From: Gemmiger formicilis
Lineage (GTDB): Bacteria; Bacillota_I; Bacilli_A; RFN20; CAG-826
Direction of reading: 5' to 3'
Assembly (NCBI GenBank): GCA_963612735.1
Contig: CAVDWX010000092.1
Location: 3,439-67,438, forward strand
Length of the DNA stretch: 64,000 nucleotides
Positions 9,043-57,597 of this stretch are shown here, piece after piece. A program made the position numbers and the translations under genes. The notes below the pieces were generated by a model, which ran no database searches, was not told the origin of the DNA, and worked only from the letters and a program-made list of their open reading frames with translations. How positions within the stretch are numbered: the first letter of the stretch is position 1; every line of letters begins with the position of its first letter.

Positions 9043-10126
9043 GATTTGTTATCGCTCCTTCTATCCCATCTTCAGCTAATCTTAATTTTACAAGGTAAGG
9101 ATGACGCAAGCGTCCTCGATCGTTGTAACTCATTGCTTTTACTACAGCAAAAAGGTTTCCTTTTTTAATATCTTCAGTTGCAGAAACTAACCATTCTCTG
9201 TCTTCATCGGTTAGACCACTTGTTACTGAAGTTGTGTTTCCATCTGGCAGCTGAACCACAATGCCATTTGCCCAGCCATAATAATAAGGCTTAGTAACAG
9301 GTTCCCAGTCTGTCCATGGGTCATTTAACTCCACTGCAGATGGAGTTCTGATTACTAATTTTTTTTCTCCGCTATCAAGATAAGAGACTTCCCAATAAGA
9401 CCAATTAGAAGGATTTTGACCTTCGTATTCTCTCTTTGGTACTAAGACTCCAATTACTGGTAGCTCCATTTCTTCTAAACTTTGTTTTAATTTCAAAGTT
9501 TTCCATGCGGTACGAGTTCCTGGTAAGTAGGGGTTATCCTTACGTTGAATTACTACTCCTTCTCCACCTGCCGAAATAATTTGGTCTGCATGTTCAGCAA
9601 AGTCATTGGTAAAAATGGCAGTTGGTTTAAAGTAGTGATTAGATAGTTGTGAAAGAGCTCCTAAACGTTGCTCATATGGTGTGTTAGTTAAATCTTGATT
9701 ATTATACATTAAGACATCAAACATTAAACCATATAGCTTGTTCTCTTTTTGTCTTTCAACTGCCTTTGGTGGTAAACAACGTAAGATGGTTCCAACTGTA
9801 TTAGCATTAGTGCCGTATTCGTTCCAACAAATCTCTGCTAAGACAACAGTATTGTCTGGCCAAGTGTCCATTTCTTCAGTCAGATGAGGAAGTTTAGCAG
9901 TGTAATCTCCATATGCACCTGTGACTTTGCTGATGCTTCTACTGTGGATTAAATTATTGCCTTTAGAAAAATGAGCAAAAAGTCCAAAATCTCCATCATG
10001 CTTTTCTGTGGCTATATAAAGATTATCTTTGTTGTCAATCATAGCTTGACGTTTAAGGTTAGAATCATCTTCATTATTATAATATTTCATAATTGGCATT
10101 TCGTAGGCTATATAATGAATGTCCAT
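9023..10126 (-). CDS. ATP-dependent polynucleotide ligase (DNA or RNA ligase, nucleotidyltransferase superfamily)
   Basis: Motif I ATEKHDG (KxDG), motif IV GGEGVVIQ, motif V AWKTLKLK. Arg is absent after KxDG, so an RNA-ligase-like identity cannot be excluded. Confidence 0.6.
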   Translation of the reverse strand: MDIHYIAYEMPIMKYYNNEDDSNLKRQAMIDNKDNLYIATEKHDGDFGLFAHFSKGNNLIHSRSISKVTGAYGDYTAKLPHLTEEMDTWPDNTVVLAEICWNEYGTNANTVGTILRCLPPKAVERQKENKLYGLMFDVLMYNNQDLTNTPYEQRLGALSQLSNHYFKPTAIFTNDFAEHADQIISAGGEGVVIQRKDNPYLPGTRTAWKTLKLKQSLEEMELPVIGVLVPKREYEGQNPSNWSYWEVSYLDSGEKKLVIRTPSAVELNDPWTDWEPVTKPYYYGWANGIVVQLPDGNTTSVTSGLTDEDREWLVSATEDIKKGNLFAVVKAMSYNDRGRLRHPYLVKLRLAEDGIEGAITNHGNEEK

Positions 10127-23007: not shown

Positions 23008-23034
23008 AGAGGCCATTAAGGTCTCTTTTAATTT
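23008..23034 (+). terminator. rho-independent terminator
   Basis: agaggccattaaggtctc hairpin followed by TTTTAATTT, directly after the last plus-strand fibre-block gene. Confidence 0.6.
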
Positions 23035-23127
23035 GGCAGGGGATCCAGGAGTCGAACCCGGTTCGGAGGTTTGGACGCTCCTACGATGATTTTGAAGATC
23101 ACTGGCCAGAACCGTTAGCCCAATCCC
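23034..23127 (-). tRNA. tRNA with anticodon UCA (reads UGA) and long variable arm
   Basis: Minus strand GGGGATTGG-GCTA-ACGGTTC-TGGC-CA-GTGAT-CTTCAAA-ATCAT-[GTAGGAGCGTCCAAACCTCCGAA]-CCGGG-TTCGACT-CCTGG-ATCCCT-G-CCA. The T-loop is TTCGACT, the discriminator is G, CCA is encoded, the anticodon loop is 7 nt with U33 and A37, and the variable arm is about 23 nt. Confidence 0.6.
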
Positions 23128-23162
23128 CTGTAAGGGATGAGTACCTATCGTCGCAAATTAGT

Positions 23163-30067: not shown

Positions 30068-31021
30068 TTACTCTTCCGTAAGCGTTTCTTCTTTGGCTAT
30101 AATTAGTACATCCCCATAAGGAAAATTTAACCAAAAGCCACGTTTTTCATAACGTTCATAATGCGTCTTGATACGAGAGTACAATTGACCAAGAGCGTCT
30201 TCTTTATTCCATAAGTCGTACCAACCATTTTCCGTGAAACCCTCATTTGGAGTGGTAATTAATTGGAAGAAATAACGAGGATATATTCCTCCTCCATAAT
30301 CTTCTACTGTTATATTGTTTGTATACTTTAGAAGTTTTGATGCTACCTTTGCAAATTTACGAAGGTCTTTATGCATGCTTTTCTCTAGTCGTTTTTCTTT
30401 ACGTAACCAACATTGACGTTTTTGATATCTAAACCATGCCTTAACGCCAGATATTCCATCATCAAAGTTTACATGTCCGTTCCAAGCACGATATGGATGG
30501 TCGCGGATAAAATTGATGATAGACACAGTTTCGCCCTCTTCTAGACAAATGCTTCCGTCTGCTGCCATCAAAGTTGCCATATCACAACCATAATGAGAAG
30601 CAGATGGTTTAAACTTATCTATTTCATTTTCATACTGCGCGAAAAACTCTCCAACTATATTAACATCACCTTTATCGTTAACTCTGATACACCACCATAT
30701 ACCATATAGCCATCCCGGTGTTCCCTTCAATCTGAAATGTACCACAGTATTTGGACCATAGTCAAACAAGAAGTAACCATCTCCATATTCTTCAGTCGCG
30801 ATGGTATAGTTTTGACTTTTCAAATGCTCAAACAATTGATTTGTTAGCGCCAAAAGTTTTTCGCTTATGACATCATCTGTACTATAAACAGAAATTTCAG
30901 CATCAGGATAATATTTTAAGTGATTAGTAATTTCTTTGTCTAAATCATCAGATGACCAATAAATACTATCTGAATAACCTTCTTTATGATATTTAATATA
31001 ATAATACATGGTGATTACCAA
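30068..31021 (-). CDS. hypothetical protein (317 aa)
   Basis: Intact ORF. Confidence 0.4.
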   Translation of the reverse strand: MVITMYYYIKYHKEGYSDSIYWSSDDLDKEITNHLKYYPDAEISVYSTDDVISEKLLALTNQLFEHLKSQNYTIATEEYGDGYFLFDYGPNTVVHFRLKGTPGWLYGIWWCIRVNDKGDVNIVGEFFAQYENEIDKFKPSASHYGCDMATLMAADGSICLEEGETVSIINFIRDHPYRAWNGHVNFDDGISGVKAWFRYQKRQCWLRKEKRLEKSMHKDLRKFAKVASKLLKYTNNITVEDYGGGIYPRYFFQLITTPNEGFTENGWYDLWNKEDALGQLYSRIKTHYERYEKRGFWLNFPYGDVLIIAKEETLTEE

Positions 31022-34113: not shown

Positions 34114-35655
34114 TTAATTTAATCTAATACTGGTGTATCTAGGCTTATTTAATACCTCAACCATATAATCATATGGTGTATGAACTTTACCTTGAAGTAA
34201 ATCGGCGAATACAGTTGAGGCTTTACCGCATACCATTTGAACGTAAGGCATACTTGCAATTGTATGGAAGGTGTCTTGTCTTGCATCTACATTCCAAAAT
34301 ACAATATTTGGCAATTGATAGCCCATTACTTCAAATTTATTTCTCATCATATTATAGAATGTATCGAACGTACCGTTATAGTCGGTAGTTTCATCGAATT
34401 CCATATCTGTGATAAGGATTAAATTTTTTGGCATCTCTTCTTGAGATAGATGATTTGTTACAGCAGTTTGTAAGATTAAATCGAACACTGCTTCCATATT
34501 TGTATTGGCAACTTTGCATGGAATAACATTTAACTTTTCAGCTAAACTTGCATTTTCCGGCAAAGTAACCCATTTAGCTTCGCGGCTAAAAACCATCATT
34601 TTATTATGATATGCTCCTGTGTTTCTCTCAGCAAAGTAAACTGCTAAGCTTAAAGCTACATTTAATGGTTGGGTTTCCATAGAACCAGATGTATCGGCAA
34701 CAACAATTGTATTGCTATTTGCATTTTGTGGAATGTAGTTATTTAAACTTTTCCACATAGCTTCTACTTCAGGTATCGGTTGTAATTGATGGTTATACCA
34801 TGCATACCAATTTTTCATGTACTTTTGCACTATTTTATAAGGGAATAAGTGTCCAACATTCATTTTTGCTGCTACTTCTTTCCCATTAACAGTAATAGTT
34901 TTACCTTCTTGTACAGCTTCGACATACTCTTGGAAACGAGCCTTATCGTGACGATTGAACGCCTTAATATATTTAGCCATTGCATTGCCCGGAACCTCAT
35001 TATAATTCACATCAGACCATCTGTTGTCTGAAATGATAGGTTCTAATACCTTACCATATTTTCGTAAAGTACTAAGCATTTTACGATATGCAGGCACTGT
35101 TAAGCCGAATGCTTTTGCAGTTTTTAAGCCTAATCGTCTAGATTCATCAGATGATGTATTTGTAGATTTTAACCATTTAGCTAATATACTAATTGGTTGA
35201 TGATTTCTAAAATTTTGACAATCGTGTCGAAAAATAAATTTAAGATAGTCAAACATTTCTTCTTCACAAGGAGTGCCTTCTAAAGCGTAATAATCGTCAG
35301 CACGACCAAAAAAGCCAATATTATCAAAATTCTTAATTAATATTTCTGGATGGCACGATGCTAACCAACGAAGACAAGTGCGGAAAGTTTGTCTTTCTCC
35401 TAAGCCTTCTTTAATATCTCGTGCATAAAAAATTGTCTTTAGAGTTAACTCAGGGTTTTCATCCCAAGCCATTGTAAGATGTTTATAAATGTCTGTATCG
35501 TCACGGTCACGAATTGACCCTATAATAGCGAACAAATCTAAACATTTAGACATTGTAGTGTTTAAAGCAGGTTGACCATTTTCGGTTACCTTTTGTGCAG
35601 ACATATTGTCCATTGCATTAACAAAATTGATACTCATAAATTTTTTCCTTTCCAA
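34114..35655 (-). CDS. Ro60/Rsr-like protein: TROVE-related DUF2828 N-domain + C-terminal von Willebrand A domain
   Basis: N-terminal TENGQPALNTTMSKCLDLFAIIGSIR...ENPELTLKTIFYARDIKEGLGERQTFR matches the DUF2828/TROVE-like pattern (TENGA..TTGS.LLD.F...R....DP.L...LFY.RD.R.G.GER..FR). C-terminal IVVADTSGSM is a MIDAS motif of a vWA domain. Confidence 0.6.
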   Translation of the reverse strand: MERKKFMSINFVNAMDNMSAQKVTENGQPALNTTMSKCLDLFAIIGSIRDRDDTDIYKHLTMAWDENPELTLKTIFYARDIKEGLGERQTFRTCLRWLASCHPEILIKNFDNIGFFGRADDYYALEGTPCEEEMFDYLKFIFRHDCQNFRNHQPISILAKWLKSTNTSSDESRRLGLKTAKAFGLTVPAYRKMLSTLRKYGKVLEPIISDNRWSDVNYNEVPGNAMAKYIKAFNRHDKARFQEYVEAVQEGKTITVNGKEVAAKMNVGHLFPYKIVQKYMKNWYAWYNHQLQPIPEVEAMWKSLNNYIPQNANSNTIVVADTSGSMETQPLNVALSLAVYFAERNTGAYHNKMMVFSREAKWVTLPENASLAEKLNVIPCKVANTNMEAVFDLILQTAVTNHLSQEEMPKNLILITDMEFDETTDYNGTFDTFYNMMRNKFEVMGYQLPNIVFWNVDARQDTFHTIASMPYVQMVCGKASTVFADLLQGKVHTPYDYMVEVLNKPRYTSIRLN

Positions 35656-38694: not shown

Positions 38695-39098
38695 TCTAGT
38701 ACTTCGCCATCTATTTCTTCCCTAAAAGCACACCAAACATCTTCTTCTAAAAAATCACGAATTGCAGGGATTAAGTTAAAAGTAGGTCTTGTCGCTGTAA
38801 AGCGAATATCTTCTACTTGTACATCTACTAATGGTGCTATACCTCGATTTACTCTGATTTCATTAATATCATTAAGACGACCATTATTTTCCCAAATATT
38901 TACTAAATCTTCTTCAGTAAAGAAAGGAATCGATGCACCTTCTTCTACTGGGCGAAAAGTTTTTTGTAAAAATTCATTAAATTTTTCAATATACTCAGCA
39001 TTAAGCTCCATAACATTAATATACTCTACACGTTCAACAGAACGAATTACTAATTGTCTACTCACAATTAATTTCCTCCTTATTTCTTCCAAGGCCAT
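38652..39098 (-). CDS. hypothetical acidic protein immediately downstream of the sigma factor gene
   Basis: 148-aa ORF ending EEEEEPWQ. Its start overlaps the sigma gene stop. Confidence 0.45.
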   Translation of the reverse strand: MALEEIRRKLIVSRQLVIRSVERVEYINVMELNAEYIEKFNEFLQKTFRPVEEGASIPFFTEEDLVNIWENNGRLNDINEIRVNRGIAPLVDVQVEDIRFTATRPTFNLIPAIRDFLEEDVWCAFREEIDGEVLDWEFGMEEEEEPWQ

Positions 39099-39919
39099 GC
39101 TGCCTTTAATTTTTGTAAACTTGCTTTTTCGATTTGTCTAACTCTTTCACGAGTTAAGTTTAATTCAGCTCCAACTTCATCTAAAGTATGAGTTTTTGTC
39201 CAATTAATTGGGTCACCATTTTCAACCTTACCTAAACCCATACGCATTTTAATTACTATTTGTTCACGTGGTTTTAAAACGGTCTTAATTAAATCTTGAA
39301 TTACTTCTTCTTTTTCCTTACGAACTGCAAAATGTTCAGGTGTTTCGCTTCTTGTGTCTGCTTGTAAGTCACTTAAAGTGTCACCATCATCTCCTAATGG
39401 TGTTTCAAGACTTACAGTGTCATAGCGCCAACCTTCCAAGTCAGCAACCTTTTCTACATCGATGCCCATAACTTCTGCGATACGAGCAGGTGTGGCTTTT
39501 CCACCCTTACTTTCTAATTCAGCAATAGTTGCTCTATACTTGTTCAACATTTGATAAATATGAGCGGGAATACGGATAGTTTTTCCGCAATCAGTGATTG
39601 CTTTAGTAATGGCTTGACGAATCCAAGGAGTCGCACAAGTTGAGAAACGATAACCTAAGTCTGGATTGTATTTTTCAACCGCAGTGATTAAACCTAAATT
39701 TCCTTCAGCGATTAAGTCTAACTTTTCCATATGACTGTTTTGATAATTATTTGCAATTGATACAACCAATCTTAAGTTACTATTGATTAATTGTTCTTTC
39801 GCAGCGTGAGCAACTTCAGGGTCTTCGCTTCTCATTTTGTATGCTAATTCTCTTTCTTCATCTGCACTTAATAATTGATATTCACCAATTTCTTTCATAT
39901 ATTTATTTAATGCTGTCAT
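39080..39919 (-). CDS. phage-encoded sigma-70 family RNA polymerase sigma factor
   Basis: Region 2 (LRLVVSIANNYQN...DLIAEGNLGLITAVEKY), region 3 and region 4 (TLDEVGAELNLTRERVRQIEKASLQKLK). Confidence 0.8.
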   Translation of the reverse strand: MTALNKYMKEIGEYQLLSADEERELAYKMRSEDPEVAHAAKEQLINSNLRLVVSIANNYQNSHMEKLDLIAEGNLGLITAVEKYNPDLGYRFSTCATPWIRQAITKAITDCGKTIRIPAHIYQMLNKYRATIAELESKGGKATPARIAEVMGIDVEKVADLEGWRYDTVSLETPLGDDGDTLSDLQADTRSETPEHFAVRKEKEEVIQDLIKTVLKPREQIVIKMRMGLGKVENGDPINWTKTHTLDEVGAELNLTRERVRQIEKASLQKLKAAWPWKK

Positions 39920-40680: not shown

Positions 40681-41589
40681 TTACTCTTCCTCTGTTCCTT
40701 CATTCTCTTCAAACGACTCCTCCGCCGTTTGGTCGGCTCCGTCGTCTTCTTTCATATCTTCAATTTTATCTAAAATTTCTTCGATTTGAATTTGGTCAAA
40801 GTTGAATTTTTGAAGCCAATTTACTCCATATTTCGCAGCAAAACGTATCATTAGAATACCAAAACGTTCCCAAAATGATTCAATATTCATACATTTAGAG
40901 TCTTTCGCCAAATTAATTATATCATCAGTTACTATCTCAAACCATTCTTCATCATCTTCCGGTATCTCAATTCCTTCGACAGGTGGACAATCTAAGAAGT
41001 GATTAATCAACCATTCAAAGTAATCTCTGTTATCATTCTCGGTCATAAGTTTCTCGAATAATAAATCACTAAAAAATGACATATAGGCATCCTCAAAGTC
41101 TTTTAAGAATGTATCAATTTTAACATAAGGTACATCAAAACTATGCCATTTAAAACTTTTTTTAGTTAATAATTTTACTTTCATGCGGTCTTCGTTAACT
41201 GTATCAACTGAATAGCCTGTTAAAAGTACTTTATGTTGATTCCAATATACGGTAATACAGAATTGCACATCATTGCCCATAACTCTTACTAAAGAGATAC
41301 CATCTTTCGGCTTAAAGCAAGAAATTGTCGGTTTTTCAGACATATATTTGCAACCAAAAATAAGATAATTCATAAATATAGTTAACCAATCCGCACGATA
41401 CTTTATATCTTCGGGAATCGGTACGGTCTTTGGTTCGCTATCTTCGCCATCTTCATCTTCTTCAACGTATTCTACAGTTGCACCATTTCGTAAAATGGAA
41501 TACACAAAGAACGTAAGTATTAAAAACACAAATATTAATATAATTGGAAACGCATATTCGTTCATAAATGTTAAATAGTAATAATTCAT
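40681..41589 (-). CDS. membrane-anchored protein with acidic C-terminal tail
   Basis: N-terminal TM segment FPIILIFVFLILTFFVYSIL. Ends DDGADQTAEESFEENEGTEEE. Confidence 0.45.
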   Translation of the reverse strand: MNYYYLTFMNEYAFPIILIFVFLILTFFVYSILRNGATVEYVEEDEDGEDSEPKTVPIPEDIKYRADWLTIFMNYLIFGCKYMSEKPTISCFKPKDGISLVRVMGNDVQFCITVYWNQHKVLLTGYSVDTVNEDRMKVKLLTKKSFKWHSFDVPYVKIDTFLKDFEDAYMSFFSDLLFEKLMTENDNRDYFEWLINHFLDCPPVEGIEIPEDDEEWFEIVTDDIINLAKDSKCMNIESFWERFGILMIRFAAKYGVNWLQKFNFDQIQIEEILDKIEDMKEDDGADQTAEESFEENEGTEEE

Positions 41590-45290: not shown

Positions 45291-45685
45291 ATCCACGTAG
45301 GCCTATAACTTTGTTGCTGCTGCTCAACTTTATGAAAACGTTTTCATTGCCCTATGCTGAATGTAGATAGCATAAGTACTATTAACTAGCCCGAGTACCA
45401 TTGCCAAGCAACCTTTGGAATGTTACTTCTACATCTGCAAAAAGTGAGCAAATGGCTTGACAAGATGTGGAAAATGTGCTATAATATTATTATAGCTGCT
45501 GCTGCTAATAAGTATCACACTGACCTAGGCACCACAAGTTTGCGGCGCCCCGCCCTCTCCGGCGTCCGGGCATATTTTGTAAACGCTTTCATTTTAATGT
45601 AAACGCTTTCATCGTATGCTTTAATTATGAAAACGTTTTCATAACCATCCTTCCGTCTGCCTCTTACATATGTGCAAAAAGAGAC

Positions 45686-45976
45686 TTATTCAGTCTCTTT
45701 CACTAATGTATATGCCTTAACAGTATTAGTCTTTTCGCCGATTTTGACACCTTTAAAATATACATCGCATACTATTTTGGTGTCTTCAGATATTACTAAA
45801 CCACGCTTTACTAAGGCAGTTACCACGCCACTAGCATATCTAATGCCAGTATCTACTTCAATTTCCATTAAAGTAACAGGATAATTATATCCCTCTAAGA
45901 CAGTTAAGAACGCTTTTTGATTGTCATTTGGTTTCCATACTTTTTCATTTTTGTTTACATTTATTGTTTTCATCAT
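45686..45976 (-). CDS. small winged-helix DNA-binding protein (paralog family member; candidate regulator flanked by palindromic sites)
   Basis: NQKAFLTVLEGYNYPVTLMEIEVDTGIRYASGVVTALVKRGLVI closely parallels 48292..48594. Confidence 0.55.
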   Translation of the reverse strand: MMKTINVNKNEKVWKPNDNQKAFLTVLEGYNYPVTLMEIEVDTGIRYASGVVTALVKRGLVISEDTKIVCDVYFKGVKIGEKTNTVKAYTLVKETE

Positions 45977-46016
45977 TTTAAATTACCTTTTACCTTTCTT
46001 TTTTATTTACACTAAT

Positions 46017-46045
46017 ATTATATCATAGTTTGGTGGCAAAGTCAA
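46017..46045 (-). promoter_or_regulatory. sigma70 promoter (TTGACT-17-TATAAT), class B (-10 context tgaTATAATatta)
   Basis: cttgactttgccaccaaactatgatataatatt on the minus strand. Confidence 0.6.
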
Positions 46046-46552
46046 GAAAAATGTTCTAAAATTTTTATTTTCTTTTTTTCATAAAATTCCTTTTCCTATC
46101 ACCTAACTACAATAATATTATACCACAAAAAGCTCAACTTGTCAACCCATAAACTTATGAAAACGTTTTCCTATCTTTAAGACTTGCTATTCTTGCTGCT
46201 GTAAAAAAATGAAAGCGCTTTCATCTTGCTGCTGCTGCTTTTTCATAAAATGAAAACGTTTTCACGCCGTCGCCACGCGGGCGCGGCATATATATCAAAA
46301 ATTTATGGCTTTATGGTTATATGTATATACATATTTATGTATTGGACATCCGATTTTTGCGTCGAAAAAGGCAGACGGAAGTGAAAAAATCTCCTAAAAC
46401 ATATTAAATTTTAGGAGAAAACGTGAAAAAAGTAAGCGAAAACGTGCAGTTTTAAGTAAAAATGTTGCTGCTGCTGCTTCAAAAATGTTAAAAAGGTGGG
46501 AGAAAGGGGAGGGATAGGAGGGGAAAGGCAGACGGAAGTGGCGAGCAAATTG

Positions 46553-46581
46553 GTTGACAAAGGGAAAGAAAGGGTGTATAA
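46553..46581 (+). promoter_or_regulatory. plus-strand sigma70 consensus promoter inside the control region (antisense to early genes)
   Basis: TTGACAaagggaaagaaagggtgTATAAT with GGCAGACGGAAGTGG 13 nt upstream. A second TTGACA follows at 46601. Confidence 0.5.
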
Positions 46582-46639
46582 TGGCAGACGGAAATGGCAC
46601 TTGACAAAACGGAAATTTCCGTCTACGCAGACGGAAAGG

Positions 46640-46668
46640 GTAAAATAAAAAAGGTCCACTAGGGACCT
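46640..46668 (-). terminator. rho-independent terminator
   Basis: Minus strand ggtccctagtggacc followed by TTTTTTATTTTACC. Confidence 0.6.
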
Positions 46669-46858
46669 GAACCTGTCACGTAGGTATCTTACGACCCGTT
46701 CTTAAGGCAAATGTAGTTTTAGCCAATTATCTTTATTAAGGCAAACAATTAAACCCGATTTATTTTGGTGAAATCTTCCCCTATTTTTGAACGATGAATA
46801 GTAACGTTTGTCCTTTTGTTGAGGATTGGACGTAGCCCCAACCTTTAATTATATTAAT

Positions 46859-46887
46859 ATTATATCATATTTATTTAACTTTGTCAA
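46859..46887 (-). promoter_or_regulatory. class B sigma70 promoter with upstream CAGACGGAAG element; no ORF before the terminator at 46640 (about 200-nt noncoding transcript)
   Basis: cttgacaaagttaaataaatatgatataatatt on the minus strand, with aatcagacggaagtaaac 16 nt upstream of the -35. Confidence 0.55.
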
Positions 46888-46914
46888 GAGAAAGATTGTT
46901 TACTTCCGTCTGAT

Positions 46915-47382
46915 TTATTTTTCTATCATACCAAAATATTTTTCTTGAGTCCAACCATTCCAACCGAATGTCAACAAATATTTTCGATAATGTCTATAAT
47001 TACTATATTCATAACTTTCAGTTTGATAAGAAGAGCCATTACGTATTAAACCATTACATTTCCAACCTAATTCTTTTAGAGTATTTTCAATTTGATTTGG
47101 GGAATATTTGTTATCAAGCTCTATGAAGCCATCAAGTTTTTCTTTGGCTTGATTAATTTTTGTTTGAATATATTCTTTTAAATCTTCTTCCATTATTTCT
47201 TTTTCACATTCAGCAAGTAAAATTAAAGCTCTGTTTTTGGCAATTTCCATTCCTATTAATTCATTAAACTTATCTTGTGGACTACATACAGCAATACCCT
47301 TTAATTCGCATTTGCCTACTTTAATAGTAGCAACAACCTTTCTTTCTTCTTTTAAAATTTGATAACTAATTTGTTTTTCCAT
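46915..47382 (-). CDS. hypothetical protein (155 aa)
   Basis: Intact ORF. Confidence 0.45.
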   Translation of the reverse strand: MEKQISYQILKEERKVVATIKVGKCELKGIAVCSPQDKFNELIGMEIAKNRALILLAECEKEIMEEDLKEYIQTKINQAKEKLDGFIELDNKYSPNQIENTLKELGWKCNGLIRNGSSYQTESYEYSNYRHYRKYLLTFGWNGWTQEKYFGMIEK

Positions 47383-47419
47383 TTTTCTAACCTACCTTTT
47401 CTTTTTTATTTACATTAAT

Positions 47420-47448
47420 ATTATATCATATTTTAATATTCTTGTCAA
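47420..47448 (-). promoter_or_regulatory. class B sigma70 promoter with upstream CAGACGGACAAGG element
   Basis: cttgacaagaatattaaaatatgatataatattaa on the minus strand. Confidence 0.6.
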
Positions 47449-47480
47449 GTATTTTAACTACCTTGTCCGTCTGAGACCGC

Positions 47481-48251
47481 TTACCCTTTATAGGTAATAC
47501 GGTCACCACGAACGAATGATTTCTTATAATCAAACTCTACAACATTTCCGTCTGGCAATACTATCACTTGGTGGAACACTTTTTCAGATGCAACTCTTTT
47601 TGCCTTCGGTAATGCTCTAGTTATGTCGGCGTTTCTTCTAATGCATTCTAATAATATTTCCGTCTCCCATTGCACATCACTTAATGCGGTGTGGTCTTCT
47701 TCAAACTCTTTATTATTAAATAAGTATCTTACTACGCTCTCAACTGTGCTACTAATATAAAAGCCCGTTGCGGTGAACTCTTCCGTCTGAGTCGCCCACT
47801 CTTTATATTCCTTTGTATTAATAATAAATTCATATGCATACGCCCAAATATCAAATATTGGTAGTCCTTCTAAAGGGTTTGCAATCCCTAATCCGTCTGC
47901 TGTGCGTTTGAATTTGTCAACATCAAAGTCACAGTTATATGCATAGCCAAATAATACATTATATTTTTTAATATCGTTTGTCATAGTAGTAAATACTTGC
48001 TTGATATTTCTTAATGTTATCATTCCGTCTGCCACCAACTTATCATACTTGGTTAGTTTGTTTGCACCTACAAAATCATCATTAAGCATATAAATACGAT
48101 TATTATATAAATCTCTTACCAAATAATCTCTAGCCACTAGTACTTTTCCGTCTGCATGTTGAATATTTATATCAACGATTTTATAACCCACATTTAATAA
48201 GTCTTGACTAACTTTTCCAACTGTTTCAGTATCAAATATTATTACGTTCAT
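47481..48251 (-). CDS. DnaQ-like DEDDh 3'-5' exonuclease
   Basis: Exo I VIIFDTETVGK and Exo III HTALSDVQ. Contains seven co-oriented GCAGACGG-type motif copies at about 100-130 bp spacing, mostly as Ala-Asp-Gly codons. Confidence 0.7.
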   Translation of the reverse strand: MNVIIFDTETVGKVSQDLLNVGYKIVDINIQHADGKVLVARDYLVRDLYNNRIYMLNDDFVGANKLTKYDKLVADGMITLRNIKQVFTTMTNDIKKYNVLFGYAYNCDFDVDKFKRTADGLGIANPLEGLPIFDIWAYAYEFIINTKEYKEWATQTEEFTATGFYISSTVESVVRYLFNNKEFEEDHTALSDVQWETEILLECIRRNADITRALPKAKRVASEKVFHQVIVLPDGNVVEFDYKKSFVRGDRITYKG

Positions 48252-48291
48252 AGTCTTCTCTCCGTCTGCCCGCTTGGGGTTGGGTGCCGAT

Positions 48292-48594
48292 TTACTCGGC
48301 TACCCTTTCAAGATTTGCTAAACTATATTTTTTTACGTGGTCGGTTTTGTGTCCGATAATTGTATCACGATAAACGATATTACTAATTCGGTCAACTTCC
48401 GTTGCTACAATAAGACCACGACCCATTAAAGCGGTCATTACACCAGTTGCAACTTTTACGCCAGTATCAATTTCGATATCTATTAGCATTGCTCCGTCTG
48501 GGTAATTCTTTAGAATTTCTAAAACTTTTGCTTGATTTTCGTTTGGGGCCCATTCCTTTTTAGTTGTTGTTGTTTTTTTGATTTCTTTTGCCAT
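48292..48594 (-). CDS. small winged-helix DNA-binding protein (paralog family member)
   Basis: NQAKVLEILKNYPDGAMLIDIEIDTGVKVATGVMTALMGRGLIV. Confidence 0.55.
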   Translation of the reverse strand: MAKEIKKTTTTKKEWAPNENQAKVLEILKNYPDGAMLIDIEIDTGVKVATGVMTALMGRGLIVATEVDRISNIVYRDTIIGHKTDHVKKYSLANLERVAE

Positions 48595-48599
48595 AATTT

Positions 48600-49215
48600 T
48601 TTACCTACCTTTACTTAAATTTTTTAATGGCTTGGCTACCATTTACATAAATATTATATCATATTTACGTTTATATGTCAAGGGCTTTTGCTTATCTTTT
48701 CCGTCTGCCAATTTTCTTACTTGGCATACCATTGATTAAGTTTATTACCACTTTACACCTAATATTATACATCTTTTAAAGCCATTTGTCAAGGCTTTTA
48801 CTTCCCTTTTCCGTCTGCCGGTCAAGGTTGGTATAGGTGGTTTTTGTTTCGGGATGACCACCAACCCCATATTTATTTTACACTAATATTATATCACATT
48901 TATTTATTTTTGTCAAGCGTTTTATTTTTGCTTTCCGTCTGCCGCCTTTGTGGCTGCTAAACCTTTCTTTTATATAAATATTATATCATAAATAAATTAA
49001 TATGTCAAGCACTTAACTTATCGGCGTCCGTCTGCCTTTGGGTTTAGGCCATTGTGATGTCTATTTAACTCTTGCACTAATATTATACACCTTTTGCATT
49101 TGAAAGTCAAGCAATAAAACTTGCCATTTCCGTCTGCTTCTCTTCTCTTCCGTCTGCGGTAGACGGATAACAAGGCCAACATTTTTTCTTTCCGTCTACC
49201 CTTTTCGGGCGAAGG
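48600..49215 (-). repeat. tandem array of five roughly 105-bp promoter units, each [GCAGACGGAA element]-N13-16-[TTGACA]-N17-[tgaTATAATatta]
   Basis: -10/-35 pairs at 48652..48680, 48764..48792, 48888..48916, 48980..49008 and 49082..49110, each preceded by ggcagacgga(a/c). No ORF separates the units. Three more motif copies in both orientations at 49128-49200. Confidence 0.7.
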
Positions 49216-49218
49216 GGT

Positions 49219-49491
49219 TTATTCCCCTTCTTCATCGTCTTCTAAGCATTCGTCCCAAAAGTCATCTTCGTCATCGTCGTCATCTTCATACCAAGCGTGG
49301 CTTCCGTCTGCTTCGATGTCTTCTGCTTCGGCAATACTTAGAAAACCTTCATAATCGTCTTCAAAACTTGATAATGCTCTCGTTTCAATTTCTTCAACAC
49401 TCATACTTTCTAGTCTTTCGCCGTCTTCTAATTCAATGACAACACTTCCGTCTAATGTAATTTTTAATGGAACTCTTACTAATTTACTCAT
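49219..49491 (-). CDS. hyper-acidic small protein (candidate DNA mimic)
   Basis: 90 aa, ends YEDDDDDEDDFWDECLEDDEEGE. About 40 percent D/E overall. Confidence 0.45.
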   Translation of the reverse strand: MSKLVRVPLKITLDGSVVIELEDGERLESMSVEEIETRALSSFEDDYEGFLSIAEAEDIEADGSHAWYEDDDDDEDDFWDECLEDDEEGE

Positions 49492-49530
49492 AATTTTTTA
49501 CCTACCTTTTCTTTTTTTATTTACACTAAT

Positions 49531-49560
49531 ATTATATCATACTTACATATCACTTGTCAA
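49531..49560 (-). promoter_or_regulatory. class B sigma70 promoter with upstream GGCAGACGGGAAA element
   Basis: cttgacaagtgatatgtaagtatgatataatatta on the minus strand. Confidence 0.6.
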
Positions 49561-49588
49561 GCCTTACGCTTTGTTTTTTCCCGTCTGC

Positions 49589-49804
49589 CTAGTTTTGCCA
49601 TTCACCTTCTAAATCAAAGTATAAACTGCCCAACCATTCACCATTAAGACTATATATTCTTAATTCTTGACCTATTGAAAATCTTTTTACATCATATTCA
49701 ACATCAAGTCTTTTTAATTGTTCTTGAATTTTTTCTAAATCAGTCATTCTCTTTTTCTCCTTTCCGTCTGCTAAGCAAACCATAATATAAACACGTTTAA
49801 GCAT
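49589..49804 (-). CDS. hypothetical small protein
   Basis: Intact 71-aa ORF. Confidence 0.35.
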   Translation of the reverse strand: MLKRVYIMVCLADGKEKKRMTDLEKIQEQLKRLDVEYDVKRFSIGQELRIYSLNGEWLGSLYFDLEGEWQN

Positions 49805-50025
49805 ATTCCCGCTAAATGCATAGCAATTCCATTTATATGCCTATCAGTTGCAAAGTCTTTAATTAACCCTAAACTTGCAATAACTAAACCAAACACCGCA
49901 CCAACATTAAACCCCACAAACACAATCAAACCTACATTAATTAGTTGTAAAATGGCTCTAATATCGTTCATTTCAAACTTGTATCTTTGTTCTATCTTAA
50001 AAAATCTTTTTACCAACTCTTTCAT
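49771..50025 (-). CDS. small two-TM membrane protein
   Basis: LIVFVGFNVGAVFGLVIASLGLI and LAGICLNVFILWFA hydrophobic segments. Confidence 0.4.
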   Translation of the reverse strand: MKELVKRFFKIEQRYKFEMNDIRAILQLINVGLIVFVGFNVGAVFGLVIASLGLIKDFATDRHINGIAMHLAGICLNVFILWFA

Positions 50026-50069
50026 AATTTAGTCCTTTCCGTCTGCCGGTGGTAGTGATAGGTCAGTGC

Positions 50070-50585
50070 CTACCACTCAAACCATCCGTCTGGGTATATT
50101 TCCCCTATATGTTCTATAAGTGGCTTTACTATTTTTATGCTTTTACCTTTGCCACTTGCTATCCATTCCCTACAATTTTTGCCGTAATCATCTAATAATA
50201 TGCCTCCTTTAGTTTTTGCATAATCGGCTTTATTTTTACCAACTCTCATTATTATGATATGGCTTTTTTTAATTTGTGGATAGTGATATTTTAGCCATTC
50301 CCTTTTATCCCTATCCGCTTGTTTATTGGGGCTTGCGGATAGAATATATAAATTTATATATGGGCTTTTTAATAGACTTTCAAAGCCTTCTTGATTAATT
50401 GGTTTAAGTTTTTTAAAGAAGCCTTTTTCAGTTTTAAAGCGTTCAAGTGCATTAATTTGTCCACCAAAGTCAGCAATAACGCCATCCATATCGCAATATA
50501 CATTTATTTTTAAACCCTTATAAAGGCTTTTTAAGTTTCTTTCTTTAACTAGTTTCTTATATTGTTTAGTCAATTTTTTATTCAT
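50070..50585 (-). CDS. 5'(3')-deoxyribonucleotidase (NT5C-like HAD phosphatase)
   Basis: HAD motif I CDMDGVIADF identical in pattern to the NT5C family DMDGVLADF. Confidence 0.65.
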   Translation of the reverse strand: MNKKLTKQYKKLVKERNLKSLYKGLKINVYCDMDGVIADFGGQINALERFKTEKGFFKKLKPINQEGFESLLKSPYINLYILSASPNKQADRDKREWLKYHYPQIKKSHIIIMRVGKNKADYAKTKGGILLDDYGKNCREWIASGKGKSIKIVKPLIEHIGEIYPDGWFEW

Positions 50586-50662
50586 TTTATCTTTTACCTA
50601 CCTTATTATTTTATTTTATTGTGGGCTTGTTTTAGGTGTAAGCCCTAACCACCTTTAAACTC

Positions 50663-51217
50663 TTAGAAACCTAACAACTCATTTAATTCTTGTATTGGTG
50701 TTCCGTTATTTGTTGGTTTAATGTGTCCGTAATTATCATAAACCAATGTTTTAGGTGTATTTAAGAATATGCCCTTATTGGTTATTAAGATAATTTTTTG
50801 AGTATTTTTTCTTAATTCGCTACCATATGCAAAACCCGTAGTAAACTTTATTTCGTAATTGGTTGTATTTATTAACCCTAAATCACTTAATAAATCACTA
50901 TCTAATTTATAAGTGTTTAAATCATTAAAACCATTTTTTGCCCTAGTGCTTACGCCCTTGATAGTGTCGCCCTTAACATAAGATTTTATTATTATTTTAA
51001 ATAGTATTTCAGCAAGTGAGCCACGATTTACCATAACTAAGCCTTTTGATTTAGTGCATTCTACTTGCACCATTTCAAAGTCGCAATACTCACAATTTAA
51101 TAATTTAAGTAATGTATCATTACTAGTTTTTGCTTTTGCTTGTGCTAGAGTGTTTAATTCTAACATCGCTTTTAATTCTTTTTTGTTTAATGTTAAGATT
51201 TGTTTGTTTGTTGTCAT
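50663..51217 (-). CDS. hypothetical protein (184 aa)
   Basis: Intact ORF. Confidence 0.4.
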   Translation of the reverse strand: MTTNKQILTLNKKELKAMLELNTLAQAKAKTSNDTLLKLLNCEYCDFEMVQVECTKSKGLVMVNRGSLAEILFKIIIKSYVKGDTIKGVSTRAKNGFNDLNTYKLDSDLLSDLGLINTTNYEIKFTTGFAYGSELRKNTQKIILITNKGIFLNTPKTLVYDNYGHIKPTNNGTPIQELNELLGF

Positions 51218-51245
51218 AATTTTATACCTACCTTTATTTATATTT

Positions 51246-51412
51246 TTGTAAGTGTGTTAAGTCCGTCTATCTCAACCACCTTACATACAATATTATACCA
51301 TATCTTAAAACTTTATGCAAATAATATGCATTATTAAATTAAAATATTTTTTAAATATTATATGTAAGTGTTTTTTGTTTCCGTCTATCTCAACCACCTT
51401 ACACATAATATT
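51246..51412. repeat. two 40-bp direct repeats containing CCGTCTA and a TATAAT-like element
   Basis: gtccgtctatctcaaccaccttacatacaatattatacca at 51248 and tttccgtctatctcaaccaccttacacataatattatacca at 51373. Confidence 0.7.
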
Positions 51413-51479
51413 ATACCACAAATAAAATAATAAGTCAATAGAAAAACAAAAAATCTTTTATGAAAACGTTTTCATTTTA

Positions 51480-51650
51480 CATTTTACACATCAAAAACAA
51501 AAATAAAATCAAAATATATAAATAAAGATATGATTTTTAAATTAAATCATATCAAAAATAAAAATATAAAATATATAAAATAAATAATTAAAATAATTTT
51601 AAAATATAAACAAGATAAAAACTAAATCAATTAATTTTAATATATTCTTA
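51480..51650. other. extreme AT-rich tract (over 85 percent A+T) flanked by repeats and a G-rich/C-rich tract; candidate DNA unwinding element
   Basis: A-tracts and AAAAT repeats with no ORF, followed by gggcggtggtgtgttagtggtgttggtgtgtagtgtaaaggtgggcgggggtag and ccccacaccccctctgg. Confidence 0.4.
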
Positions 51651-51834
51651 TCATGGGCGGTGGTGTGTTAGTGGTGTTGGTGTGTAGTGTAAAGGTGGGC
51701 GGGGGTAGAATAAATTTTTTTGAAATTTTTTCTTTTTCCCCACACCCCCTCTGGCCAATCCGGCATACGACAATTTTTAGATATGACAAATTTTTGACTT
51801 CGATGATTTTTTGATTTCTACTTTTTATTCCACC

Positions 51835-52885
51835 CAATCTCTCTCGCTCCCATCGTTTCAATCCATCATTCTTCTCTTTCATTTAACCATTTACTGCGAT
51901 CTCCACCCTTACCATCTCAAACTTCTACTACCTCTCAAGTCACCTCATCCGGCCTACTGACCATCGCATACAATCTCTCGTTACCTTTCGCTTCTACTCC
52001 AATCATTTTCTTAATATGAGTATATCAACGTTCACTTATCTTGACAGCCTGTCCAATATAACAAACCTTTTCATCGTTCACTCAACTTAGTCTATAAATG
52101 CCACTAACAGCACCATCAACACTTAATGCCTTAACCATACGTTGAATTTCAGGCAACCACACCTTCTTCCAAGCAACGGTCATAAGTGCTTCCCTTAACT
52201 CAGGATATAACTCCACGACCTCATCCAACAATCCTAACATCCTCTCTTGACTTCTCGTCAGATGAAAAGTTTCAATGTGACGAACGCCTTCTTCTCCTTC
52301 GCCACCTATCAAACCAAGGGCCTGACGAAAACTTTCTTGCAGATGCGAAAGCTCATTTTCTACGTCCTTCATTTTTTGTCCTAGTTCCTCTAACCTGTGA
52401 TGACTTTGACTCTCTTCATTTTTCATTGCGGTTAAAAGTTCCTTCTTGGCAGCCTCATCAGCTTCAAGTTCCCGCATTCTTTCTTGTAACAACTGGCAAC
52501 GCCCTGATAAACCTTCGTACTGTAATGCCTCTTTTTGCGCTTCTTCCAGTTCTACTTTTACAGTCCTGTAATGTTTAAAAGTATCGGCCAACCTTACTTT
52601 CACTTCATCTATAGTGCGGCATAACTCTTCCTTCTCGGCACTCCGCGAAGCTAGTTGAATCTGCGCCTCTTTCAATTTAGGTTCAAGTTCATCGTGAAGA
52701 CTAGTTTGCAGTATTTCTTGTTTATCTTTTAATTCTTGCAGATGTCTATTATGAATATCAAACAGCTCATCTAATTCTTTAATTTGTTTTAATTTATTGC
52801 GAATTTGACTATTTAAAGCTACTATGAACCCTAATTCTACAAATAGACCTAAAACTATTAGTATTATTCCTATTATCTTTATCAT
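51835..52885 (-). CDS. membrane-anchored coiled-coil protein with Trp-rich C-terminal extension (TGA read-through)
   Basis: N-terminal TM IIGIILIVLGLFVELGFIVAL, then a long heptad-rich region. In code 4 the frame continues past TGA at 52082 for about 80 more codons. Higher GC than its surroundings. Confidence 0.45.
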
Positions 52886-54213: not shown

Positions 54214-56022
54214 ATGCTAGACGATTTAAACTTTTATGATGAAGATTATATGGAACCTGAAATAGCCGACCTAATAGAATTCTTTGATAATGAAGAGAGA
54301 CAAACTACTAATACCTTAACTAAAAAGCGCATTGATGAACATTTTCAAGAGGTGGGCAGATACTTAAATGAGTTTATGATATATCCTGATTTATTTGTTG
54401 ATTTACTTGTGCCGAAGCGTAGTCACTTCACATTATATCCATTTCAACGTATAATGATGAGATGCATGGCTCGTGGAACTGCAACTTATGAAACTTTATC
54501 ACGTGGTACCTCTAAATCATTTATTGCCGATTTGGAGCGCTACCTCCACTGTATGTTCGTTCCACGTCACAATACAACAATTACCGCCGGAACAATCAAA
54601 CAGGCAGCAGAAATTGCCAAGCAAAAATTCGTTAATGACTTATGGGTAAAATTCCCTCTTCTTGGTAACGAGATGCAACGTCGTGTAGTAGCCGGTAAAA
54701 AGATGGACCCGTTTTCAGTGCAAAAAGATTATGTATCATTTACTTTTAAAAACGGTTCGTCAATTTCATTAGGTAATGTCCGTGGTCTACGTCGTCAATC
54801 ATTAATCTTTGAAGAAGTTATTGAACAAGACGAAACCCTTGTAAATGAAGTTTATATTCCTATGTTAAATGAACCTCGTAAAATGAGTAATGGTTTAATA
54901 AATCCATACGAACCACAATCTCAAGAAATTTATATTACTACTGCGGGATACCAGCAGACGTTTGCATATCAAAAGCTTATTGAAATATTATGTCGTTCAG
55001 TTATGGATCCAAATAACTATTATGTTATCTGTGGAACTTATCGTATTCCATTATACCACGGTTTAACTGCGAAGAAAAAAATTGAGGACGTTATTAATTC
55101 TCCTTCATTTAGTAAATCTTCATTTGAACGTGAATATGAAAGTAGATGGAGTGACGCACCAGCTGGCGCGGCATTTAATGTTAATATGATCAGCGCATTG
55201 CGTCAAGTAAAGTTGACTGAATTAAAGAATAAATTAACTACCACTCAATTAAGTGACGGTTGCTTTTATGTCATCTGCGCCGATATGGCGAAAGATGGTG
55301 CGGCCGAAACGGCAGTCGGGGTAGCAAAAGTAATTCCAAAGGAACACTTTTTTACTTACAAATTTGTTAACCTATTTAGTATTACTTCAACTGACTACAT
55401 GGTTATTGCAAATGAATTTAAGAAAACCGTTCTACTCTATAACGCCAAACTTCTTATATACGATGCCAATGGTATCGGTGCAGCAATGCGAGATTGGTTG
55501 AATAAAGAAACTCGTGATGATAAAGGTATGATTTATGAGGGATTAGGAATTATTAATCCACCAACAGATGCCGAAAAAGATTTAATTGCATATCCTAAAG
55601 AGAAAACCATCTGTTATGAAATTAAGTCAGGTGGAACAATTGGAGAACAAATTCATTACTTCTTCTTCTCACGTATGAGTACCGGGGCTATTACTTACCC
55701 ACTTAAACTTACAGATGCAATTGCATTATATGGACGTAATAAAGGTTTCATGGATATGAGCATGCGCAAACAAAAAGAAGTTTTAGCACCATTCCAAGTA
55801 ATGGATAAAATGGAACAACAACTTAAAAACTTAGATATTCTAAACACATCTGACACAATGACCAACCGTTTAAAAATTGTTCGTCGTAATGCAAAAATTC
55901 AAAAGGACTATTTTTCTATGGCAGAGTATTTAGTATGAGCGGTTAATAAACAATTTGAATTAGAATATTACAAACGTAAACGACAAAAAGGCAAAGGTCG
56001 TAAAATTGCCTTCTTCGACTAA
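54214..56022 (+). CDS. terminase large subunit
   Basis: About 602 aa after TGA read-through. Has an ATPase-like N-domain (YPFQRIMMRCMARGTATYETLSRGTSKSF) and a nuclease-like C-terminal half. Located before the portal. Confidence 0.65.
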
Positions 56023-56040: not shown

Positions 56041-57597
56041 ATGGCAGATCCAAAATTACAATTTCGAAAAAATCGTATAGAAAAATTAAAAAACATGTAT
56101 GCAGATGACCAATCTTCTCGTCGTCGACAAGATAATAAACCATCTTATTTGTCATCTGATTATGCAAATGCATCAGCAGTTCGTCAAGCATTGTGGGGTT
56201 CCATTAATGATCCGAATACTTTAGCGGAAACATCTCGTAAACTTTATGCAACAAATCCTATTTACGCATCTGTTATTAATTATTTGGCAGATATGTATAC
56301 TTGGAATTACAAAGTTATTCCACACAAGGTTTATGCTAAGACAAAAGCAAAAGCCAAAAAAACTTTAAAACCAGATGACTTTCAATTAATGTATAATTTA
56401 ATGCTAGAAGTTGCAGATGGTCTTTCTATTGAAACTAAATTTCCGTCTTTATTAACATTATTATTTGTTACAGGTTCTGTTTACTTTACCACTTTTTGTG
56501 ACGAAGAAAATTATGCTATTGATACAATTTTATTGCCTAATAAATATTGCCGAAAAATCGGTGAAACTCAATTCGGAACAGCAATTATTCAATTAGATAT
56601 GAGCTATATTGATGATTTGGGTGGAAGTACAGATGAACTTAAAAAAGCTTTTTTAGAAGGTTTTCCTGTTGAATTTAAAAAATATTATAATGCCTATAAG
56701 CGTGATAGTCAAAAGCGTTGGGCAACATTAGATCCAAGATTTTCAAGTGCCATTTTACTAAATGACGCTGCAATCCCAACTTTTTTCTATCTTTATGGCG
56801 GAATTCTTGACTATGAAAAATATCAAGACAATGAATTGCAACGTAATGAAAATTTATTAAAGTACATTGTGGTTCAAACAATGCCTCATTATGAAGATAA
56901 ACTTATTTTTGAGGTAGATGAAGTTGAAGCATTGCACAAAAGTTTGCGTCGTATTGTAGAAACGAATGATAAGGCACGTTTAATCACTACTTATGGTGAT
57001 ATTAAAGTAGCTAAAATTGCCGAAAATGATACATCTGAAAATGAAGTATTAAGTAAAGCCTTCAAAGCAATCTTTAATAACGCCGGTTTCAATAGTGCAA
57101 TTTTTACGGCAGAAAGTGTTAATGCATTACAAATGTCTTTAGTACGTGATAAAGGTTTTGTATGGAGACATGTGCAAAAATTAGTTAACTTCTATAATAT
57201 TGCTATTAACAATTGATTTGATTTCAAGACCTACCAAGCGGATATTGAAATTTTACCAATTTCGCCGTATACTATCAATGACGATATAGGAAGATATAAA
57301 GCTAACGCTACACTTGGTGTTGGCAAGTTAGATTATTTTATAGCGTCAGGTATTAAGCAAAAGAATATTCAAGATCAATTAGACCTTGAGGACTTCTTAA
57401 AATTAGATGAGATTAAGCCAATGCAAACATCTTATACTCAAACTGCGGAAGATAGACAAGATGAACAGCAACAAGATGGCGACAGTGATTCATCTAATAA
57501 AAATGCTAAACAAGACAATAGCGCTCAAGAAGATAATACAAAAGATGGGGATACAAAATCAACTCCTGAAAATGAGCCATCAGGTCAAGATAAATAG
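56041..57597 (+). CDS. portal protein
   Basis: About 518 aa through TGA at 57214. Follows the terminase and has an acidic/polar C-terminal tail typical of portals. Confidence 0.55.

Follow-up and report, generated by a model that had tools for sequence, protein, structure and literature searches.

A polar, evenly spaced short word along the early operon of an uncultured gut phage, a possible docking site for a DNA-binding protein

Introduction

In the early region of a large tailed phage, of which a 64-kb stretch of contig CAVDWX010000092.1 (hereafter the window) was analyzed, the short asymmetric word (g)YAGACGGAA(a) is repeated in one orientation both upstream of promoters and inside genes, which raises the question of what reads it and to what effect. 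The word originated, or also exists, as an upstream promoter element ending 15-18 nt before the -35, and in the lineage of the window it has been amplified in one polarity through the gene bodies and non-coding spacers of a terminator-free operon of 4-5 kb. We favor, at somewhat less than an even chance, the reading that the early operon is controlled by a protein that binds duplex DNA sequence-specifically and docks at this word.

Results

Abundance and orientation of the word

The exact sequence CAGACGGAA occurs in 19 copies in the window against 0.27 expected, with a maximum of 2 in 100 shuffles, and 18 of the 19 lie within 45651-50045. When one mismatch is allowed, there are 40 matches (7.1 expected), 30 of them in 45.6-51.4 kb, and for the core AGACGG the count is 33 in 45.6-51.45 kb as opposed to 6 in the remaining 58 kb. 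The original prediction of about 30 copies at 46.3-51.4 kb and essentially none elsewhere in the window is upheld by these counts, as is the enrichment over shuffled controls that it had named beforehand as a check. In an unbiased k-mer scan, words of the AGACGG family were 65-98x enriched in the region, with 0-1 antisense copies. The logo of 266 copies from six arrays begins with a weak g and then g or c, followed by a position occupied by C (66%), T (20%), G (12%) or A (2%), the core AGACGG, and A (96%), A (80%) and a (57%). The sole conserved signal beyond the word is a -35 element, ~23 nt downstream.

All copies are in the transcribed sense, in the window and in the related arrays described below. 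The main array comprises 27 same-strand copies on the minus strand (46616-51387), in addition to which there is a weaker AGACGGC copy at 49421 (minus). It is opposed by a plus-strand mini-array (46372-46636; copies at 46372, 46529, 46585 and 46628) that meets it at terminators, giving the polar, strand-pure arrangement expected of a Chi-like element, with an opposed group at 46.37-46.64 kb. Three plus-orientation copies had been counted before; the correct number is these four, with a further copy at 49160 as partner in a hairpin. The minus strand has no terminator-like site from 51.4 to 46.67 kb and then three in tandem. At the distal end of the array (46616-46668) there are two tandem terminator-like hairpins, of which the second (46637-46616) is an inverted pair of the word itself, TTTCCGTCTgcgtAGACGGAAA. 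Since no terminator occurs until its end, the array is co-extensive with a single read-through unit, which carries at least 10 internal promoters. A second inverted pair, ATCCGTCTaccgcAGACGGAA (49148-49168, no strand assigned), is kept in the relatives L001 and L036, and an outlying minus-strand copy lies at 45651-45659, downstream of a gene for a winged helix-turn-helix (wHTH) paralog (45686-45976).

This arrangement bears on an RNA-level signal, by which the word would act in early transcripts as GCAGACGGAA, an RNase or RNA-binding site or a multi-site sponge for a host factor; T4 RegB, for example, acts on GGAG in the shut-off of early mRNA. The polarity of the word flips with the opposed transcription unit, the array spans +17 of the first promoter to the terminators, long, strongly transcribed stretches that contain no ORF (49.2-48.65 kb in the window, 7600-8450 in the relative L010) conserve little except the word, and the inverted pairs form hairpins with variable loops, one of them a terminator. 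On the opposite side, the predicted unpaired probability of the copies is 0.54 compared to 0.60 for 8-mers matched for purine and GC content, and is therefore not elevated. Moreover, one cut per mRNA suffices for an RNase, so that neither even spacing nor 30-75 copies would be predicted.

Spacing of the copies

The intervals between copies are significantly even, with a coefficient of variation (CV) of 0.42-0.52 in six arrays compared to ~0.96 at random and few gaps below 20 or above 140 bp; with inclusion of the array of the relative L170, the range is 0.42-0.56 compared to ~0.95 in seven arrays. The typical interval is ~80-120 bp over 4-5 kb. The regularity of 110-132 bp in the exonuclease gene, where intervals of roughly 100-130 bp had been noticed earlier, reflects this general evenness, and a strict 115-bp period was rejected, other arrays being denser and aperiodic. 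The helical-repeat-like spacing suggested earlier was not observed, as there is no 10.5-bp phasing (Rayleigh n*R^2 ~2).

These spacings weigh on the proposal, made in part by the original prediction, that the copies are iterons, centromere-like sites or packaging sites bound by an initiator, a partition protein or the small terminase. The word is indeed a repeated asymmetric 9-mer, and the distance from the array to the terminase genes is 2-3 kb, with very AT-rich DNA next to the array at 51.45-51.65 kb. However, unphased and loosely distributed copies at 80-120 bp intervals over 4-5 kb in genes are unlike iteron, parS/parC or pac clusters, and neither Pfam nor PHROGs revealed, in 44-53 kb, a gene for an initiator or for proteins of the ParA/ParB, ParM/ParR or TubZ/TubR type. 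The array is missing from sister phages that have the same terminase module, and the tie to promoters would be left unexplained. We consider the proposal very improbable.

Geometry of the promoter-linked copies

At nine promoters of the window (eight minus, one plus at 46554), a gap of 17-19 nt separates the end of the AGACGGA core from the TTGACA downstream; the same nine had been recognized previously, at the 13-16 nt that are obtained from the end of a longer word. Among the 88 in-array promoter-like sites of eight arrays, 60 have a core ending 13-20 nt upstream of the -35, with the gap peaking at 16 nt (32 sites) and 15 nt (13 sites), and the AGACGGA arrays have a minor gap class of 38 nt beside that of 16-18 nt, as expected for sites separated by helical turns. 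The word covers about -52 to -60, immediately upstream of an A-rich UP-like stretch, and its distance and orientation to the -35 are fixed as in class-I-type sites. The class I or UP-like position assigned to these copies at the outset therefore stands, with very tight spacing in every lineage examined. An RNA-level signal provides no rationale for a spacing of +/-1-2 nt to the -35 in 60 promoters, nor for the helical-turn gaps of L170 or the promoter-only state of L186 described below, and we consider it unlikely. Not every copy is promoter-associated, the promoter-linked share being about one fifth.

The most upstream minus-strand unit (49531-49587) has its copy at 49579-49587 (CAGACGGGA), 19 nt from TTGACA-18-TATAAT, and the next (49082-49156) has two, at 49148-49156 and 49128-49136, with gaps of 38 and 18 nt to TTGACT-17-TATAAT. 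Consensus promoters followed by no ORF are found at 48980-49034 (copy 49026-49034, gap 18), 48888-48941 (copy 48933-48941, gap 17) and 48764-48817 (copy 48809-48817, gap 17). Three more consensus promoters drive a wHTH gene at 48292-48594 (unit 48653-48707, copy 48699-48707, gap 18), a 155-aa gene at 46915-47382 (unit 47420-47473, copy 47465-47473, gap 17) and an ORF-less ~200-nt transcript (unit 46859-46912, copy 46904-46912, gap 17), all on the minus strand. The plus-strand unit opposing the main array (46529-46582) has its copy at 46529-46537, 17 nt from TTGACA-17-TATAAT. The first two early promoters (51438 and 51321, minus) have no upstream copy, and two leader copies (51379-51387 and 51261-51269) lie at ~+17 of them.

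The tandem run of five consensus promoters at 48650-49200, one every ~90-125 bp with no credible ORF between them, is reminiscent of the T7 A1-A3 promoter cluster. The ORF-less ~200-nt transcript (46650-46887, minus) starts from a consensus promoter and ends at a canonical terminator, and a permissive Rfam scan of it returned only a sub-threshold match to 6A RNA (E 0.019). A transcript from the opposing plus-strand consensus promoter (46554-46670) would be antisense to it.

Selection on the copies inside genes

Within the genes of the region, Asp-Gly is encoded by GACGGA in 10 of 13 cases compared to 5 of 70 elsewhere, despite a general preference for GAT, and two further copies of the window use another reading frame. 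In three other dense arrays the corresponding counts are 22/24, 25/25 and 36/39, with copies in each of the three frames. The skew toward GACGGA, together with the other reading frames, rules out a dipeptide artefact and bears out the earlier proposal that the copies are maintained at the DNA level. Conservation in related phages, likewise named beforehand as a check, indicates purifying selection: between L036 and the window, motif positions are 96.6% identical and flanks 83.7%, with 22 of the 23 copies intact in L036 where ~6.6 would be predicted from 0.837^7, and 24 of 25 are intact in L001. The cost of the amplification is borne in codon choice. Homologous genes differ in the number and place of their copies, the gene for the 5'(3')-deoxyribonucleotidase NT5C having 1 in the window and ~7 in L010, and it is the density of copies that is selected rather than their particular places.

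We also considered that the word has no function of its own, its copies being hitch-hikers of duplicated promoter cassettes supplemented by chance Asp-Gly codons. The tandem promoter units at 49.1-48.65 kb do look like diverged duplicates with similar A-rich spacers, and mobile cassettes of a promoter and a stem-loop occur in T4-type phages. The codon test, the use of three frames, the purifying selection inside conserved genes, the even spacing and the independent gain of copies in homologous genes such as NT5C contradict this explanation, to which we attach almost no credence.

The putative exonuclease gene (47481-48251, within the block 47481-48268, minus) has six copies in its ORF, three reading ADG (48146, 48023 and 47891), two in another frame (QTE at 47781 and ETE at 47658) and one reading PDG (47546). 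Seven copies, mostly Ala-Asp-Gly, had been attributed to this gene; beyond the six, one lies just upstream (48260-48268, 9 nt upstream of the ATG, counted to the 3' end of CAGACGGAG) and one just downstream. On the same strand, a copy in the wHTH gene (48492-48500) and one at the end of the NT5C gene (50084; block 49762-50092) read Pro-Asp-Gly, another precedes an 84-aa gene (50037, 12 nt upstream of the ATG, counted to the 3' end of CAGACGGAA), and the copy at 49762 is joined directly to the Shine-Dalgarno sequence of the gene that follows. The gene at 49219-49491 (minus) has copies at 49446 and 49302 inside its ORF and a further one at 49190 just downstream; its 90-aa product, strongly acidic in the C-terminal half (DDDDDEDDFWDECLEDDEEGE), may act within the early operon as a DNA mimic or in anti-restriction. 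No copies are present in p184 (50663-51217, minus), the gene with which the unit begins.

Related phages and natural variants

Megablast against phage genomes returned no match, and relatives were sought in IMG/VR, metagenomes and genomes with both pattern and protein queries. Dense single-orientation arrays of 31-75 copies each are present in at least 12 related contigs, with pig gut, rumen-type and human gut among the sample sources. The 66-77% range of identity in the terminase large subunit (TerL) of the array contigs leaves out close relatives of the window, and proteins within the arrays are only 26-60% identical; the position of the array, adjoining the terminase module, is syntenic in all relatives. 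A scan of 185,579 genomes detected no prophage copy and gave a single phage-like small contig, binned with a Clostridium metagenome-assembled genome. A terminal-repeat test of a 118 kb contig revealed only a 127-nt assembly overlap. L016, L197 and most matches in the genome collections were discarded as unrelated coding or heptamer tandem repeats. In several assemblies of Bacteroidales and Flavobacteriia (L074, L097, L111, L117, L055 and L061), long tandem runs of GAAGACG, a heptamer, were caught by the AGACGGAA pattern; they are unrelated to the phage.

Several relatives differ in the state of the word. In L186 (TerL 68%), the word, GGACGGAAAG, is promoter-only: all 14 copies of the cassette GGGTGACCgGACGGAAAGTAAA-11 nt-TTGACA keep a gap of precisely 11 nt to the -35, the core is matched no more than about four times elsewhere, and there are essentially no copies in genes. 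The left part of the cassette is a 9-1-9 near-palindrome centered near -60. In L170 and L201 (TerL 71%, human gut), AGACGGA is almost missing and the same region carries another word, GTCAAAAGAA, C(g/a)GTCAAAAGAAa. In L170 this word is found in 22 sense and 2 antisense copies, in genes as well as upstream of promoters, with even spacing (CV 0.56, p = 0.003) and promoter gaps of 9-11 and 20-21 nt, which are one helical turn apart. L196 has ACCCGACGGAA in intergenic clusters and in both orientations, and L034, L169 and several others share the same backbone and have no array. The variant series indicates that the architecture is a family trait and the word is lineage-specific. The nearest named phages, phAss-1 and Enterococcus phage EF1, share the early architecture with many promoters, but neither an array nor a counterpart of the word at -55 is present in them.

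The clusters of L196 (690-3315) are three in number, each with 2 sense and 4 antisense copies of ACCCGACGGAA at 30-40 bp from each other, and share the core GACGGAA. A second strand-pure word, GTAGGTTA, is present in one sub-lineage (13:0 in L010, 16 copies in L171, 24:2 in L194, 7:2 in L017), in Shine-Dalgarno regions and inside ORFs (4300-9000 in L010/L171). In the window, the related AAAGGTAGGT is an unusual ribosome-binding site of early genes, and 5 of 6 copies of AGGTAGGT are in the region. The TerL of L170 is split between residues 245 and 247 by a ~1.1 kb insertion (8911-10001), possibly the result of an intron, an intein or a homing endonuclease.

A literature search for the word retrieved primers only. 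Mimicry of 23S rRNA was set aside, the base before the core being A in the rRNA and in only 2% of the copies; AGACGGAAA is presumably positions 2052-2060 of the E. coli 23S rRNA. The type III CRISPR tag ACGGAAAC does not fit the invariant A of AGACGG, and the Neisseria DNA-uptake sequence, which shares CCGTCTG, was dismissed in view of the GC content and the signals of Firmicute type. We rejected a Spo0A box because two different invariant words cannot both be a conserved 0A box, and a -35 element for a phage sigma factor because no -10-like conservation is seen downstream and the gaps differ between lineages.

Candidate readers of the word

The wHTH paralogs, proposed initially as readers, are not supported in this role. 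The predicted model is a generic winged helix, with Foldseek matches to ScpB, RTP, TFIIE and MarR at E ~0.01, and the recognition helix in L170 (KSGSINCLIAKG) is the same as in the AGACGGAA lineages, where the word differs. We regard p184, on its sequence and position, as a candidate reader. It sits just upstream of the start of the dense array in the window, in L010 and in phage J, the three loci checked, and has an invariant D99...E122-x-K124, a signature like the D...ExK of restriction endonucleases that is only suggestive of a nuclease. For the "DEDDh exonuclease" no Pfam match even at E<5 and no PDB sequence match was obtained, the label being read by eye from motifs.

With these genes at hand, the array could be a polar, Chi-like nuclease-control or self-marking element, in which the first-expressed and possibly first-entering DNA attenuates host AddAB or the phage's own nucleases (p184 and the exonuclease, along with the 5'-deoxyribonucleotidase). 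Strict polarity, two opposed groups converging on one point and even coverage with few gaps >140 bp agree with such an element. In addition, p184, the exonuclease and the wHTH occur together in 13/13 dense-array loci and 0/10 non-dense loci, a count uncorrected for phylogeny, and NT5C, with a function like that of T5 Dmp, is encoded within the array. The core AGACGG also resembles the Bacillus Chi, AGCGG, which may not be that of the host. The escape of unmodified T5 DNA from A1 and RecBCD is unsolved (bioRxiv 10.64898/2026.04.02.716235; 10.1101/866236), and protection of the first-step-transfer DNA of T5 would be the analogous problem. Nevertheless, neither the fixed position to the -35 nor the promoter-only state of L186 is explained, the exonuclease label has no Pfam or PDB support, and the only complete relative assembles as a circle. 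We consider such nuclease control improbable, and similarly so the version in which the gene-body array is not a transcription signal but a self-marking system read by p184 or its nuclease machinery. If it were true, the destruction of host DNA by p184, the exonuclease and the 5'-deoxyribonucleotidase would bypass the marked early DNA or treat it in another way, and the array would be a sequence-encoded answer to the survival of unmodified first-entering phage DNA, as in T5.

Organization of the early region and of the phage

The array occupies a leftward early region, divergent from a packaging module with genes for the terminase large subunit (54214-55938) and the portal protein (56041-57216). 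Helicase, ligase and topoisomerase genes are found elsewhere, a full sigma factor of the sigma-70 family is encoded at 39080-39919, and structural genes match the SPbeta YonB/YonD families. The early region is rich in perfect TTGACA-17-TATAAT promoters of the sigma-70 type and encodes small proteins, wHTH paralogs, the putative exonuclease, NT5C (Pfam, E = 3.5e-11) and p184. Directly upstream of the first early promoter, at 51440-51750, ~200 bp of extremely AT-rich DNA are followed by a C-rich tract (minus strand), a stretch that may serve as an origin or an entry end or have a part in packaging.

The palindromes TGAAAACGTTTTCA and TGAAAGCGCTTTCA (at ~51465, 46255, 46210, 46158, 45640 and 45600) flank early promoters that have no AGACGGAA word, and ~12 copies are retained in the array-less L034 (11800-12100). 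They fit the consensus of cre, the CcpA operator, and could serve as operators for the dimeric wHTH paralogs or for a LacI-family protein of the host.

Outside the array, an ORF ending at 52082 (51830-52885, minus) reads through in-frame TGA codons into a GIY-YIG-like sequence (GIYRLS*VNDEKVCYIGQA...), the TerL genes of L005 and L017 have 1 and 3 in-frame TGA codons, one aligned with Trp, and the window has a tRNA with anticodon UCA (23034-23129, minus). Taken together, these sequence features suggest that phages of this group read TGA as Trp in genes other than the early ones. A 513-aa protein encoded among tRNA genes (34114-35655, minus) matches PHROG 850, "RNA-binding protein" (376 bits), and may be of the Ro/TROVE type.

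Discussion

The expectation of a DNA-level function with an activator-like position was borne out for the window and its relatives, whereas helical spacing, a wHTH reader and iterons were not. The exact spacing to the -35, the helical-turn classes of gaps and the promoter-only state argue for recognition on duplex DNA in contact with RNA polymerase, and amplification into codons with even spacing over a terminator-free operon argues that operon-wide occupancy in one polarity has been selected in this lineage. According to the docking-protein reading, the early operon would be transcribed by the host RNA polymerase, a single protein would occupy the entire unit and contact the polymerase when bound at promoters, and each gene-body copy would show the same face to a polymerase moving down the operon. 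Bound upstream, phi29 p4 is an activator at a weak promoter and, through over-stabilization of RNA polymerase, a repressor at a strong one. This precedent, the consensus strength of the promoters and the two copies at +17 of the first promoters incline us, tentatively and by analogy, to a timed shut-off of the early operon, and activation or recruitment appears less likely than that.

Several points weigh against a docking protein. No protein was identified as a reader of the word. The wHTH paralogs do not co-vary with it, their family being present also in array-less lineages, and no MrpR-like protein was found, the only two ORFs tested (40681-41589 and 30068-31021, unannotated, ~300 aa) having no PDB match to MrpR; the former also has no Pfam match. 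About 80% of the copies have no downstream promoter (541 copies with none within 12-21 nt). Cryptic weak promoters at the canonical gap are not truly enriched among the 541 (7.46 compared to 7.59 mismatches, a difference that tracks codon phase), and a promoter-centered factor is therefore insufficient alone to explain these copies. The inverted pairs, with variable spacers of 3-11 nt, are hairpin-like and unlike rigid operators. The sense-strand polarity and the co-extension with the unit, including the +17 leaders, are equally expected of an RNA-level signal, and the sign of the regulation is drawn from position and analogy alone.

The comparison with known systems shows partial likenesses. 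In phi29, the p4 sites (A2c/A3), like class I activator sites, place a factor just upstream of the alpha-CTD/UP region, but the p4 sites are sparse inverted repeats that never recur along genes. In T4-type phages, PeSL (promoter-early stem-loop) cassettes, reportedly described by Arbiol et al. in 2010, precede small early genes as conserved units of a stem-loop and then a sigma-70 promoter. The L186 cassette, with its near-palindrome, A-rich stretch and promoter, looks similar, whereas PeSL have no single-arm word in coding sequence, operon-wide even spacing or strict strand purity. Chi (RecBCD/AddAB), KOPS/SRS (FtsK/SpoIIIE) and Ter (Tus/RTP) are asymmetric words of 5-23 bp whose orientation matters. 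With them the array shares opposed groups converging on a point and copies embedded in genes; their spacing is in the kilobase-to-100-kb range with no promoter tie, in contrast to one copy per 80-120 bp within 5 kb and a fixed promoter geometry here. The SPBRE of the Bacillus phage SPbeta, a ~130 kb Firmicute phage, is a 15-bp sequence in ~10 copies, intergenic only, that is bound by the master repressor MrpR/YopR (PMC10516654). As in SPBRE, a phage-specific short word is repeated at many early promoter regions; the difference is that the present 9-10-mer occurs in 30-75 copies, is ~80% promoter-independent, lies in many ORFs and is strand-pure and evenly spaced. None of these four types of element combines promoter anchoring with a strand-pure, even, codon-embedded operon array. 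In T5, the first-step-transfer region likewise contains host-takeover genes and a gene for a 5'-deoxyribonucleotidase beside conserved arrays of a short word to which a protein binds; its repeats are host DnaA boxes in one untranslated block (bioRxiv 10.1101/866236), and do not form a strand-pure word that runs through the genes.

Repeated regulator sites at phage early promoters are already known; a word that runs through all of an early operon, coding sequence included, is another matter. The literature searches made here found no case of a strand-pure, evenly spaced, selected and lineage-swapped word across the coding sequence of an operon, and we know of no comparable operon-wide, codon-embedded word array. 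The cis-element and its reader would act on the whole 5 kb takeover module of an uncultured family of ~115-130 kb gut and rumen phages. The promoter-only, dense, alternative-word and array-less states provide a natural comparative series for finding the reader, and with this series it can be tested whether phages regulate or protect their first-expressed DNA by operon-wide sequence marking.

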